A DNA stretch of 64,000 nt from Eledone cirrhosa (lineage: Eukaryota), in NCBI GenBank assembly GCA_964016885.1, contig OZ024743.1:66278001-66342000 (forward strand). The letters run 5' to 3'. The notes under the pieces are model-generated. The model searched no databases, was not told where the DNA came from, and saw only the letters and a list, made by a program, of their open reading frames with translations. Made by a program: the position numbers and the translations under genes. Positions 8,937 through 64,000 of the stretch are shown here, one piece after another (position 1 is the stretch's first letter; the number at the start of each line of letters is the position of its first letter).

Positions 8937-9127
8937 ACATATCCTATATATATATATATATATATATATATATATATATATATATATATATATGTATATA
9001 TGTATGTGTGTGTATCTCGGCTTCAATCGGGGGTTACCACAGTAAGTAAGATACTCAATACATAGTAGAGTATAAATATTATATATATATATATATATAT
9101 ATATATATATATATATATATATATATA

Positions 9128-9598
9128 TAGTGTATTTTGCAATACACTGTATGCTTAATTAAAAGCATTTCGAAAACCTTACGCTATTGTTTTAGAGTAG
9201 TAACAGTCTCACTTACTTTAAATTTTCAGCAAACAGGCGAGATAAAGCTGACAGAGCTCTGTCTCGTACTCTTTGGTACTTATCAAAGCTAAGTACTCCA
9301 CCTGTTTGCTGAAAAAAATGAATGTTTGATTCTTATAGAATTCTAGTAATAATCAGGAACTGATTATACAGAGCGGTTGCCGGTCAAGCAGAAACTGAAA
9401 ATTAGAATTGGTGCTCTGAAATAGCGATATATATATGAATGTATATATAGTGTATTTTGCAATACACTGTATGCTTAATTATACAAAACAATAGCGTAAG
9501 GTCTTCGAAATGGTTTTAATTAAGCATACAGTGTATTGCAAAATACACTATATATACATTCATATATATATCGCTATTTCACAGCACCAATTCTAATT
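9128..9598. mobile_element. PLE-derived fold-back element with core-mutated HHR (9246-9290, minus)
   Basis: 9128-9192 is inverted at 9485-9550, followed by a tail. Minus strand reads AGCT-TTGATAA-GTAC/GTAC-GAGA-CAGAGCTCTG-TC-AGCT. Homolog at 29474-29838. Confidence 0.7.
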
Positions 9599-9643
9599 TA
9601 TATATATATATATATATATATATATATATATATATATATATAT

Positions 9644-9832
9644 GGGAAAACTCAGGACCCTGAGGGCTGAGCGCCAGCCGTTTCGACAGCTAGGTTCAGA
9701 CCTAGTTGTCGAAAGGTCGGAGCTCAGCCGTCGGGGTCTTTACTCTTTTCCTATTATCCACTCTACGACCCTAATTATCGAGTACCATGGTACGTTATGG
9801 TGCACCTGGTTCATTACCACACTTCCTTCTTT
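9644..9832 (+). mobile_element. small fold-back (about 50-bp arms) plus 80-nt tail, PLE terminus
   Basis: Imperfect hairpin centred near 9693, lying between (TA)n tracts. Collapsed homolog at 27188-27309. Confidence 0.6.
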
Positions 9833-10014
9833 ATATATATATATATATATATATACACACACGCACACACACGCACACACACACACACACACACACACAC
9901 ACACACACACACACACACACATATATATATATATATATATATATATATATATATATATATATATATATATATATATATATATATATATATATATATATAT
10001 ATATATATATATAC

Positions 10015-13000
10015 ATTGTTATACTTGGGGAGGGTCCTATTTGTGTAATAATATTGCCAGAATTAATAACAGAACACACTCACTGTTTGGTTGATTTTCG
10101 CTTCTGTGTCTTTTATATCGGTTAATTTAATTTATTCGATCCTCAATGTCAAAAATACAGATACAATATAGACACAAACACATATATATAGTCTAACAAA
10201 GTTTTTTCGTTGCACATCTGCAACATCGTCAGTGGTGCTATTATGTTTCCTGCCGTTGTATTGTATGCCTACGCCATCTTTATTTAGTCTGTTTATTTAT
10301 TTGTTTTTTTTTGTCTTCTCCGCGCATGCGTTTGCGTGTGTGTATAGTGTTTTGTTTGATGTGTGTTCGTGTTTAGGTAACTGCGTATTGGTTATTGTAT
10401 TCTATCTTAGTTTACTAGTGTGTGTTTATATGTGTTTGTTGTTATTGTGCTTGTGTATGTATTTATTTATTTATTTATACTTCTCTTAGGTCAGTGTTGT
10501 TTGTTTGGGTGTTGTTATTCCATTCATTTTTTCTGTTTAGCCATTAGTTCTATTTCGCTGGCCTCTCTGATTTGCCTATCTGCTGGGTCATTTCTATGTT
10601 TAGATATTATTCTAATTTCTATGTTGTCTATGTTACCGACGTGTTGCTGTCTGGCATGTTCGTATAGTACTGAACCTTTTTTTCGTCCTTTTAGTTCCCC
10701 CAGCGTTGGTCTATCTTTTCACCTATGCTACGAGCTGTCTCGCCTATGTATGTTGTTGTCATGCTTCTGCAAGTACCCTCTGTACATCTTATGTTATAGA
10801 CTACGTTTCTAGTTTTACAGTTATCCGGGGGTTTACTTTACATATAATACATTTCCTCTTAGTACAGTGGGTTTTCTTAAAAGAGTAGGTTTTGCTGATC
10901 AGGGATTTTATGGTGGTTCCTGGCTTTTCTACAACCTTAATCTTTAAGTGGGTCTTTCTCAGGGCCTTTCTACACTGGTTAGCAAATTGCCCTCCAGGGG
11001 TAGCGTCCACAAACATGACACTCTGGTATCTCTGGTTGTCGTACCATGAGGTGGCTTTGCCTATCTTATCTCTAGTCCTATCTAAGCTATTCCATGATTT
11101 GCTCCTGTATAATGGGCAAATTCCTTTCATGTCCAGTTCTATGAGGGTCTTATACTTCTCCGTGGCTCCTTCGTATACTCTGATTCTGTCTCTTTGGTTG
11201 TAGCCAGACAACTGCATGCGGTTGATGAAGTGTTGGATGTGTCTTTCCATTTCTGTTGGGTCGCACATGCGGGACACGTTCTTCATCACTCGTACCAAGT
11301 CTGCGATCAGAATATTAAACTTAGTACTACTGGACATTGCTGAGTTTTTGAGTATCAGGTATTTGGAGGCCATGGGTTTAGCATAGTGTGAGTGGAGAAT
11401 TTGGGCTCTCTCGTCTATAGTGTTAATCCAGAGTTCCGTGTCTAATACATGTAGTCTATTGTTAGGGTGTTTGGAAGGGTAGTCGATAGTTACAGTTATA
11501 CTCTGGTGTATGGAATTAGCTATCTGCTGGATGCTTTCCATTTTGCTACGTTCTAAATCAAACTTTTTAGTACTCTCTTGTGGGGATGTCCTTATTACTA
11601 TATTGATATCGTCTACCTAACGAGAGTACATGATGAGGTCTATGGAGCTCTCATCAAGGAGATATTTGAGTCTCCTTTCCCACCATACCATAAAAAGTTT
11701 GGCAACGTCACCAGCTATGCTGACGCCAATGGCTGCTCCCTCATTTTGGGTGTAGATCTTCTCATTGAACTTGAATATGTGGCCCTTTAGTGTAGTTTTG
11801 ATACTAGCCCCTATTGCATGTGCGACCATTTTTCTTACCTGATCATTGTTTTGGGGGCTCCGTATAGCTTTGGTCCACCCAATCCACCTTCCCATGGGAG
11901 TCTTTTTTGCCATTGAGGTTATGGTGGGGGGGTCTACTTCTTATGACTCTACTGGGGCAGAAACGTCTAAGATCATGACTGTCTAGGTAGTCAGTGTCAT
12001 AGGTAAGTCTAAGTAGGAAGCCCAGTTCTTCCGTGTCGACGTCGCAGAACTCCACCTCACTCTCAATGATCATCTCCACACATTTTTCCACAGCAGAGTC
12101 AATGTTAATGGATGGGTACAGTGATACCACATCCATACTGCATATTATGCAGTTGGATAGGTTCCTGTTTTTGTTGCACTCACTGATTATGCTGAGGAGG
12201 TCCTCTGTACTGTCACATACATCTGGGGACATCTTGATTATGGGGCGTATAACCATTGAGAGGAAATAGGAGATACTGTAGTTGCTAGCTATATTTGCTC
12301 CGCATACAGGTCTTGTAGGTGGTCCTGTTGTCGGGTCGTCGACTCTGTCTTGTGGTCTTTGCGGAGCCCATACAAGGGTGGTATGCCATTGTTAGACGCC
12401 TGGAAGTTGTTGGTTGTGGGTCTGCTTGGCTTTAGGATGTCGGTCCACATCATCATGTGAGCGTTGATGATTTTCTCTCTCCCATCATGTATTTGCTGTG
12501 CAATTTCGCTCGTGTTGGTGATGTGGGGTTGCATAGCCTAATATAGTTCGGCATGCTGTCTATTGACATCCTACTAGACTTATCCGTGGGTAGACATACT
12601 ACCTCACCATCCCTTGTGCGCTGCTTGAGGCTAACCAAACCTTCTACAGGTTTCCTCCCAAGTTGTTGGACCTCTGGACTGCTATGTCTCTTAGTATACC
12701 GGTCTACTATTTGTCTAATCTTATTTCTAGCTATGGTGAACTGTGTCTCTGTCTCGTCATCTATTTGTTGTGGTATGTAAACCCTTTTATTAAAGAGTAA
12801 CCTCGTAGGATAGATATTAGCCATCTTATATGTTTTGTTAGCTGGGTTGAAGAATAGTTTCTCTAAGGGGTTGTCATTATATCTATCGTCATAGTTGTGT
12901 GTGTTGCTATTATTGTTATTATGGTGGTTGTTGTTGTTCCTATCATTAGCATTATTATTATTGTTATGATTGCTAGATGTATTGTTGCTGTGATTGTTAG

Positions 13001-63357: not shown

Positions 63358-63715
63358 GATAAAGCTCAGGAAAGGCATGAATAGTAGATACCCATATGTC
63401 ATCTCACATATGCTTTAATATAAGGCAAAGGGTGCAATTATGTAAGCTAAACATACAAACGCACATACACCTACACATACACACACACATACAAACGCAC
63501 GCGCACACACACACACACACACACACACACACACACACAAATACACACACGCATACACACATACACAGAAAATCCCACAGAATCATAGTTGTTAATGCTC
63601 ATATGTATATATATGTGTGTTTGTGTGGTGTGTGTATGTGTTTTGGGTGTATGTCTCTGCATATACATATATATATATATATTTAGTTATGTAATAAACA
63701 ACATAAGATAATTAT

Positions 63716-63776
63716 TTCATTTACCAGTGGTTTCTTGAAGGCAGATGTTATGTCTGTCTTCAGTCGTCAGAATGAA
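63716..63776 (-). ncRNA. type I hammerhead ribozyme
   Basis: Reverse complement of 63836-63896. Confidence 0.88.
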
Positions 63777-63835
63777 TAAATAACATGGTATTTTTTTTTA
63801 TTAAATATGGATTTATAAAATCACCATGTTATTTA

Positions 63836-63896
63836 TTTATTCTGACGACTGAAGACAGACATAACATCTGCCTTCAAGAAACCACTGGTAAATGAA
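63836..63896 (+). ncRNA. type I hammerhead ribozyme
   Basis: TTTATT-CTGACGA-CTGAAGACAGA...TCTGCCTTCAA-GAAA-CCACTGG-TA-AATGAA. Confidence 0.88.
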
Positions 63897-64000
63897 ATAA
63901 TTATCCTATGTTGTTTATTACATAACTAATAAGCTCTGTAGCCCACATAGAGCACTCTCTTTTCCTGTACCTTTCGGACGGAAATAGTTCATTTACACAC

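Follow-up and report, generated by a model that had tools for sequence, protein, structure and literature searches.

A bulged RNA hairpin, first noticed in a 64,000-nucleotide (nt) stretch of Eledone cirrhosa DNA (contig OZ024743.1, positions 66,278,001 to 66,342,000; this whole stretch is called the window here), probably acts in cis on the RNA of one group of Penelope-like elements (PLEs), the Hydra clade, where it typically occurs twice and the pair would serve as uncopied RNA anchors that position the internal starts of reverse transcription. PLEs are the sister group of telomerase, and the hairpin bears on their template choice, optional tail and inverted arms. Repeats of the (TA)n and (CA)n types abound in the window, which is animal DNA, and several of its fold-back insertions have hammerhead cores on the strand leading into an unpaired tail. 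The original prediction, made on the window, was of an ACTC..GAGT or GCTC..GAGC hairpin recurring just inside the 3´ tail of otherwise dissimilar PLE families, taken as a conserved cis-element for recognition by the reverse transcriptase (RT) or the endonuclease (EN) that sets the inversion point. The observation is confirmed and this interpretation is partly supported: a conserved, covarying and positionally constrained element was recovered in an independent set of loci, where copies end near the hairpins.

The independent set started from 150 relatives of the window protein, five full-length ones of which were aligned, and loci were picked via RT peptide patterns, with the motif playing no part in retrieval. 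It comprises 90 Hydra-clade loci: genome contigs, in which 13 of 26 candidates proved genuine, supplied 12, and metagenomes (the best 80 of 259 confirmed) supplied 78. Together they form 68 families at 80% nucleotide identity; 48 families were evaluable, having at least 130 nt ahead of the start of the open reading frame (ORF). A scan of IMG/VR gave 87 pattern matches, 0 of them confirmed as Hydra loci, and a homologue search using the EN piece returned no match. The loci L001–L012 are animal Hydra-type retroelements in contigs filed as bacterial genome bins, which represents host contamination of these bins.

The full motif reads RCTC, an inner stem-loop, a TH bulge, GAGY and RCT (R, A or G; Y, C or T; H, A, C or T). 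At the RNA level, a 4-bp lower stem carries an upper stem-loop that varies between copies; a UH bulge of 2 nt interrupts the 3´ strand between the two, and an ACU that does not pair follows the stem. A G-poor UA tract lies directly 5´ of each hairpin. The lower stem is usually GCTC/GAGC and less commonly ACTC/GAGT or GCAC/GTGC. A strict form of the motif (first upper pair, TH bulge and RCY after GAGY) was found ahead of the ORF in 35 of the 48 families by their first member and in 38 by their best member, compared with a mean of 0.48 in shuffles (maximum 3, 200 rounds), 1/48 on the reverse strand and 2/471 in ORF tiles.

In the loci fetched by protein, the motif typically occurs twice per leader, in the order hammerhead, first hairpin (hp1), second hairpin (hp2) and ATG. 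The median distance from the hammerhead GAAA to hp1 is 58 nt (42–78, n = 71), an hp1 being present behind 71 of 161 hammerhead cores, many of the others being tail-less ends or chance cores; hp1 and hp2 lie a median of 62 nt apart (55–74, n = 37), and hp2 precedes the ATG by 10–35 nt. An intact unit consists of the ORF, the 3´ untranslated region (UTR), the hammerhead, hp1 and hp2, followed by the ATG of the next unit, with intervals of about 40–50 nt between the hammerhead and hp1 and about 40 nt between the hairpins. What had been described as a hairpin inside the 3´ tail is indeed a hairpin, but a bulged, two-tier one followed by an unpaired ACT or GCT and present in two copies per intact unit. 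The tail carries hp1 and is the start of the 5´ leader of the next unit.

Pairing was assessed on 87 family-by-position instances (46 hp1 and 41 hp2), selected with no pairing condition. The first pair above the bulge is Watson–Crick in 86 of 87 (C–G in 56, T–A in 30), against a permuted mean of 47, and so are the next three upper pairs in 51/82, 36/50 and 20/41 (permuted 23, 13 and 12). The bulge letters are TT in 66 instances, TC in 12 and TA in 9. The first upper pair of hp1 switches at least seven times among 42 labelled rows in a quick tree from which the window row was left out, and the almost invariant motif with its covarying pairs is kept among proteins that are ~40–45% identical. The swap between ACTC/GAGT and GCTC/GAGC, put forward earlier as covariation, is compensatory, but it is seen only in the window families and may be one event in a divergent lineage.

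Known RNA elements do not account for the hairpin among those compared. The Rfam matches in the window, among the 150 of 225 listed, were all to microRNA (miRNA) models, none at the gathering score, and eight loci gave two miRNA matches, both below gathering. Readings as a selenocysteine insertion sequence (SECIS) or a C/D box were ruled out by the layout, and a reading as hammerhead stem III by the position of the hairpins, 42–78 nt downstream of a separate core and with no GAA or cut-site context. Several Hydra hammerheads (File S2 of PMC8557442) have a stem III of the form ACTC-n-GAGT, with the same 4-mers as the A–U variant of the window, probably by coincidence.

The ends of copies were located by comparing 81 alignment ends with native leaders; after dropping those with identity <90% (21), length <50 (17), at contig ends (10) or of TA only (1), 32 ends from 23 families were kept. 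Hairpin-adjacent ends make up 22 of these 32, with 8 at 0–10 nt before hp1, which gives a tail-less arm, and 14 at 0–10 nt before hp2, which gives an arm with a tail. Ten of the 22 run into flanks that are not (TA)n (L022, L031, L043, L047, L054, L056, L062, L066, L068 and L074). Since ends fall before hp1 or hp2, the tail equals the hp1 unit and its length the hairpin spacing; past hp1 it measures 55–72 nt in the loci and about 56–107 nt in the window. It agrees with the description of a PLE tail, being an optional extension on one side of the inverted pair that corresponds to the start of the next tandem unit, and the duplicated hairpin may explain why this tail is optional. The scatter of tail ends is 1.3 nt around hp2 versus 5.9 nt around hp1 (n = 10), and therefore the tail end follows hp2 and not a fixed ruler from hp1. 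Because the copy ends sit just 5´ of the two hairpins, the hairpin probably tells the enzyme where to start copying.

Window copies behave similarly at hp1. Tail-less arms end −6 to +1 nt from its first base in 10 of 11 comparisons; at the eleventh, 9760, a degenerate arm stops at −21 (by script). The hairpin was expected 5–10 nt after the arm/tail boundary, and it does adjoin that boundary, although the distance was slightly too long. Likewise, the solo tails begin near the arm boundary but not exactly at it, about 9 nt (9080) and 16 nt (27448) before the hairpin. The idea that the hairpin sets the inversion point did not survive: the joints vary (e.g., 20947/20986, 52340/52341, 56081/56098), and tail-less and tailed copies end before hp1 and hp2, respectively, so the hairpin marks the outer ends and not the inversion joint. 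At the joint of the family A fold-back (20948–20985), three TTAGGG-type telomere repeats (CCCTAA on the plus strand) lie between the arms. The 5´ joins of some elements to (TA)n are also at or near a hairpin (L008:4870–4900, L055 near 3020, L079 near 660, and likewise the window solo tails), and 5´ joins may also favour UA tracts.

All ten sites named in the window are present within 1–2 nt (21234, 48285, 25641, 52363, 9760, 63933 and 56189 on the plus strand; 56405, 9071 and 19897 on the minus strand), together with the one in the solo tail (27432, minus). The list was valid but incomplete, as it missed 16451 (minus), 26892, 31178, 46769 (minus), 47349 (minus), 55888 and a 3´ half at 27249, which add about three further families with the motif (16451, 31178 and 46769/47349/55888; Table 1). 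The sites do lie in dissimilar families, about seven, but not ten: 21234, 48285, 25641 and 27432 form one family (77–97% alike), and 9071 and 19897 another (by eye). An extra structure of upper stem, TH bulge and RCT is near-universal at the window sites, the exceptions, in part, being 25641, 9071, 19897, 16451 and 56189.

As a signal in the window, the loose ACTC..GAGT/GCTC..GAGC pattern is real but weak alone, with 32 matches versus 22.4 ± 4.1 (maximum 33) in 100 block shuffles. The strict form gives 11 matches versus 0.16 (maximum 3) in shuffled sequence, a contrast that is partly circular since the strict pattern was partly shaped on window sites. A covariance model was trained on 86 non-window hairpins, a set in which the A–U variant is absent. 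Its top seven window matches are all motif sites (E 1e-4 to 0.5), five of them named earlier (63927, E 1e-4; 21228; 27406; 56183; 48279) and two new (46737 and 47317). At E ≤ 10 it misses 52363, 9760, 25641, 56405, 19897, 31178 and 16451, mostly A–U or long forms.

Table 1. Hairpins, hammerhead cores and associated PLE features in the window (hp1, first hairpin; E values from the covariance model unless stated otherwise).
Feature	Positions	Strand	Remarks
hp1, family E	9053..9071	−	In solo tail 9016–9080; without RCT after GAGT; E 6
hp1, family B	9760..9786	+	Weak upper stem; fold-back 9643–9832 with hammerhead 3´ half
hp1	16411..16451	−	Closing-pair mismatch, long upper stem; tail of fold-back 16345–17288
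hp1, family E	19879..19897	−	Downstream of a degenerate hammerhead-like stretch
Family A fold-back	20699..21316	+	Tail-less arm (−), arm with hammerhead 21130–21170 (+), tail 21231–21316
hp1, family A	21234..21256	+	ACTC, TT bulge, GAGT, GCT; E 0.04
hp1, family A	25641..25661	+	Upper stem damaged
hp1, family A	26892..26914	+	One lower-stem mismatch
Family B hairpin, 3´ half	27249..27262	+	Truncated tail
hp1, family A	27410..27432	−	In solo tail 27349–27448; E 0.06
hp1-like A–U variant	31178..31233	+	Branched long upper part, directly behind the end of a short interspersed element (SINE); no arm or hammerhead seen, membership uncertain
hp1, consensus type	46741..46769	−	7-bp upper stem; tail of ORF-less 581-nt tandem dimer 46672–47747; E 0.03
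Degenerate hp2 look-alike	47219..47244	−	7 nt behind the tail end of the downstream copy; by eye, weak, unproven
hp1, upstream unit of dimer 46672–47747	47321..47349	−	E 0.06
hp1, family A	48285..48307	+	In fold-back 47905–48368; covariance model match
5´-truncated Hydra-clade PLE	49042..52340	−	RT, linker CxCx5C, C-terminal GIY-YIG; tblastn of Hydra proteins E down to 6e-114
Hammerhead core, 3´ pseudo-long terminal repeat (pLTR) of element 49042–52340	49098..49144	−	
Inverted second arm (~20 nt of pLTR end) and tail of element 49042–52340	52341..52445	+	
hp1, A–U variant	52363..52390	+	ACTC, 4-bp upper stem, TA bulge, GAGT, GCT
hp1, relative of dimer family (55545–55988)	55888..55916	+	Covariance model match
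hp1, long upper part	56189..56237	+	Fold-back 56031–56273; E 0.2
hp1	56379..56405	−	ACTC, 5-bp upper stem, TC bulge, GAGT, GCT; fold-back 56330–56590
Hammerhead core	63842..63881	+	Fold-back 63683–64000
hp1, consensus type	63933..63956	+	GCTC, TA bulge, GAGC, ACT; E 1e-4

The assignment to the Hydra clade is based on the element at 49042–52340, which has one frameshift near 51890 and one stop near 51234 and ends without a tail in (TA)n. It encodes an RT with a C-terminal GIY-YIG EN, the DKG motif is changed to DKT (SDKT in the 51852–52421 translation), the linker CxCx5C is accompanied by CxxC and CxH around E and N, and a canonical hammerhead lies in the pLTR. The N-terminal RWK motif reads RW and then I, a third place that also varies in relatives. 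Hydra elements tend to be shorter than 3 kb, which is a tendency and not a strict criterion; this one measures 3.3 kb though truncated, with a long 3´ UTR and an N-rich insert. In a tree of Hydra-like rows only, the window row is on a long branch, with an RT at most 43% identical to those of the loci.

In contigs from public runs, the loose ends at 52341 continue into the element's own pLTR and those at 52344 into a normal ORF N-terminus. Because these contigs join 52341–52445 to the element's pLTR, the hairpin at 52363 is tied to an autonomous Hydra element. That the antisense strand of the tail encodes the ORF N-terminus, as a YKNK look-alike at 52341–52352 could suggest, was ruled out by the normal N-terminus continuing at 52344. 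The summed contig depth is ~100-fold higher on the tail than on the ORF, a depth that is not a copy number. The link to a Hydra-type ORF is shown only for this tail, and the assignment of the other ORF-less units relies on their hammerheads, their ends in (TA)n and the presence of the motif. The ORF-less dimer 46672–47747 (minus) and its relative 55545–55988 (plus) are 70% alike and have an extended hammerhead-like stem III and consensus hairpins; they are likely a Hydra-derived non-autonomous family, and the dimer retains a perfect hairpin.

The hairpin had been proposed as an element of PLE families generally. It holds for the Hydra clade, but among what could be tested the motif looks specific to this clade and was not seen in the Naiad or Chlamys consensi. 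Reading the Hydra consensi of Craig et al. (File S7) by eye places the full motif in the 3´ tail of both Hydra-2_Amil and Hydra-2_Ajap; Hydra-1_Ajap carries it twice at its 5´ start and Hydra-1_Crog has a one-mismatch form, so that four of six new consensi carry the motif or its one-mismatch form. A text search with three 9-mers in the supplement of PMC8557442 gave four matches for Hydra; the Naiad and Chlamys files, which are far larger, gave a single match each, in coding-looking context, and line breaks in these files can hide matches. Within the window, CTC..THGAG is absent from the non-Hydra PLE (10–13.7 kb) and its tail at 19628–19695, and also from three further units and the hammerhead tandem of 433-bp repeats that starts at 41568.

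This non-Hydra PLE (9995–13731, minus) is decayed and has a CX4CxxC linker, a C-terminal GIY-YIG, an N-rich insert and a hammerhead-like core at 10205–10232; its end sequence recurs at 19580–19695, a tiny fold-back with a 60-nt tail without the motif, and at ~21340. The tandem at 41568–43287 (plus) comprises four 433-bp units with hammerhead cores at 41763, 42196, 42631 and 43066, an array of the non-LTR (long terminal repeat) retrozyme type that lacks the hairpin. A further family of fold-backs inserted in (TA)n, at 9130–9599 and 29500–29837, has no recognised hammerhead core and no motif.

A mechanism can be outlined in which the element's protein would bind each hairpin on a read-through RNA. 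Target-primed reverse transcription would then start on the UA tract just 5´ of the hairpin, which would stay uncopied, and base pairing between this tract and the nicked (TA)n target is possible. A start at hp1 would produce a tail-less arm and a start at hp2 an arm with a tail; if each target strand were primed at a different hairpin, the result would be the inverted arm plus tail insertion, the two complementary DNAs (cDNAs) joining head to head at variable points. Between RT and EN recognition, the geometry points to RT acting on RNA without deciding the matter. More tentatively, and with doubt prevailing, the leader could be a duplicated initiation module (a UA template tract and a bulged anchor hairpin), with dimeric RT-EN subunits each holding one hairpin of the same RNA and priming both nicked (TA)n strands at once, which would write both arms in one event. 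An AlphaFold model of the relative P0002 (pLDDT 89) did not distinguish between the RTs of DRT9, TERT, retrons and group II introns (TM 0.2–0.4 in each case) and was uninformative on the RNA-binding site.

Biochemical data exist for PAc, the Poseidon element of Anolis (Frangieh et al. 2024, PMC11167929), one PLE studied in vitro, which starts internally at two sites bounding the tail and extends both target strands. It needs RNA up to +172, well 3´ of the starts at about +85 and +111–118, its binding motif being bracketed only to 172 nt, and it is predicted to dimerise (PMC11167929).

Several observations weigh against such a role of the hairpins. The strict form is absent in 10 of the 48 families, several of which are truncated or inverted, while in several others the motif is present but has only one upper pair or an altered stem. 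No motif was seen by eye in the Hydra-1_Obim consensus and a doubtful one in Hydra-1_Amil, and hp2 was seen for no window family, apart from the look-alike in Table 1, the contig comparison for the element at 49042–52340 having extended to 52445. The lower stem is near-invariant, with two-sided change in 2 of 86 rows (GCAC/GTGC), which are possibly not independent of each other (p-AU, the approximately unbiased p value, 0.5), and therefore its pairing rests on complementarity more than on covariation. Folding does not pick the strand (pair probability 0.64/0.59 sense, 0.69/0.49 antisense), single window tails fold weakly (z +0.6 to −3.1), and the motif is not in the minimum free energy fold at 52363, 31178, 16451 and 9760. 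Ten of the 32 ends fall outside the 0–10 nt zones, although four of them are within −12..+6 and one is a cross-family artefact. Furthermore, 119 of 264 TAT/ATA triplets in 30 native leaders lie inside the hairpin-adjacent zones, which are ~13% of the length; since UA tracts crowd the same zones, a microhomology-only null gives P = 0.006 and not 1e-14. The UA-rich tracts beside the hairpins account for part of the end clustering, and their crowding before both hairpins is part of the conserved module. Finally, PAc starts inside an AC-rich stem-loop and not before one, at RNA non-homologous to the target (PMC11167929).

The closeness of hp2 to the ATG (10–35 nt) could mean that the hairpins serve expression, through cap-independent translation of hammerhead-cut RNA or as a promoter, with ends adjoining them only via UA-rich, single-stranded flanks that pair best with (TA)n. 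The presence of 45% of TA-like triplets in the same zones and the location of PLE promoters in the pLTR (PMC6765202) agree with this, but it is unlikely: the ends are still enriched over the TA null (P = 0.006), flanks other than (TA)n follow 10 of the 22 adjacent ones, the scatter around hp2 is as small as 1.3 nt, hp1 is intact even in units that have no ORF, and covariation argues against a plain DNA site. It is also improbable that the hairpins direct RNA 3´-end formation, a host nuclease or the element's protein cleaving or trimming just 5´ of the stem, after which RT would begin at an ordinary 3´ end. In vitro, PAc initiates internally although its RNA is uncut (PMC11167929), and the ends here are 2–8 nt from the stem base and not at it. 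In favour of this reading, the ends lie at a short and constant distance 5´ of a stem whose 3´ ACU is unpaired, and for PAc the ends of RNA-seq reads match the mapped starts (PMC11167929).

Another candidate is a signal at the DNA level, on the donor copy or on single-stranded cDNA, which the GIY-YIG endonuclease would recognise and cut beside when resolving an intermediate. This is hard to reconcile with the constant absence of the end-marking hairpin from the arm inserted there. According to PMC11167929, recognition of plasmid DNA by the D. virilis EN depended on the tail, Craig et al. attribute the tail to resolution by the EN (PMC8557442), and folding does not settle the strand; however, G–U outnumbers A–C by 15 to 7, a mild excess on the sense strand, and PAc ends are explained by RT starts, which makes a DNA signal quite improbable. 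The last alternative, chance matches plus the shared ancestry of a few families without any function, would fit a loose pattern near chance in the window and four earlier-named sites that are one family. It is hardly credible given 35 of 48 families versus 0.48 shuffled and a near-invariant motif with covarying pairs retained in ~40–45% identical proteins; because the loci were fetched by protein only, bias toward the motif is excluded and chance is refuted.

A clade-wide, covarying, duplicated element of ~30 nt, whose positions predict both copy ends, opens template choice to simple mutagenesis. The hairpin rule is usable for annotating the ends of Hydra elements and of their non-autonomous derivatives, and RNA-templated insertion at (TA)n gains a candidate cis-tag. 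Were the two-subunit model true, an integrating retroelement would combine anchor and template much as telomerase does, and a portable tag of ~30 nt could make any RNA an insertion substrate.

Other features of the window include 330-bp inverted repeats at 54550–54887 and 59302–59641, 96% alike and 4.4 kb apart, with a third copy at 7689–7823; these are the ends of a DNA-transposon-like element with several PLE pieces nested inside. A 382-aa stop-free frame at 23357–24505 (minus), without a Pfam match, presumably resembles a DNA-transposon transposase, and Pfam gave no useful name for any of 13 window ORFs. A 64-bp tandem repeat array occupies 60776–63356, and ~25 copies of a ~190-bp SINE-like repeat are spread across the window (e.g., 421–606).

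The Hydra clade was described with protein motifs such as DKT and CxCx5C, which the window element shares, and with a canonical hammerhead, (TA)n targets and an inverted 5´-truncated copy plus tail (Craig et al. 2021, PMC8557442). The tail is given there as 30–40 bp and ascribed to EN resolution, a length from which the tails measured here depart, and the available main text contains neither "hairpin" nor "stem-loop". Non-LTR retrozymes are ORF-less, pLTR-derived hammerhead units (Li et al. 2026, preprint 10.64898/2026.07.22.740005; Cervera and de la Pena 2014, PMC4209133), like 46672–47747; the available text of these two papers names no cis-signal for mobilisation, and the hairpin is a candidate for such a signal in Hydra-derived retrozymes. 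The original prediction knew of no prior description, and none was found in Rfam or in the available text of PMC11167929, PMC8557442, 10.64898/2026.07.22.740005, PMC4209133, PMC5737381, PMC3846280 and PMC6765202, although figures, Repbase notes or subscription papers could hold one. The duplicated RNA module of Hydra-clade PLEs is thus apparently undescribed.

A close comparison is PAc, which shares internal initiation, two starts bounding the tail, an upstream hammerhead, required RNA 3´ of the starts and an AT-rich target (PMC11167929). Its uncopied anchor 3´ of the starts has the geometry proposed for the Hydra hairpins, which supports that proposal. It differs in being one family with a predicted fold only, a stem-loop inside the ORF and a 34-nt tail (PMC11167929). 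The Hydra hairpin, in contrast, is a clade-wide, covarying and duplicated motif in the 5´ leader, with ends just 5´ of each copy. More distant parallels, in which no sequence likeness is claimed, are hepadnavirus epsilon, the 3´ stem-loops of long and short interspersed elements (LINEs and SINEs) and the anchoring stems of telomerase RNA, all of them RT-bound RNA anchors, in which a small bulged stem-loop places the enzyme at a fixed distance from its start. Epsilon primes in its bulge and LINE stems are copied. In telomerase, too, the anchor stays uncopied and priming takes place on a repeat target, with the boundary element on the other side of the template.

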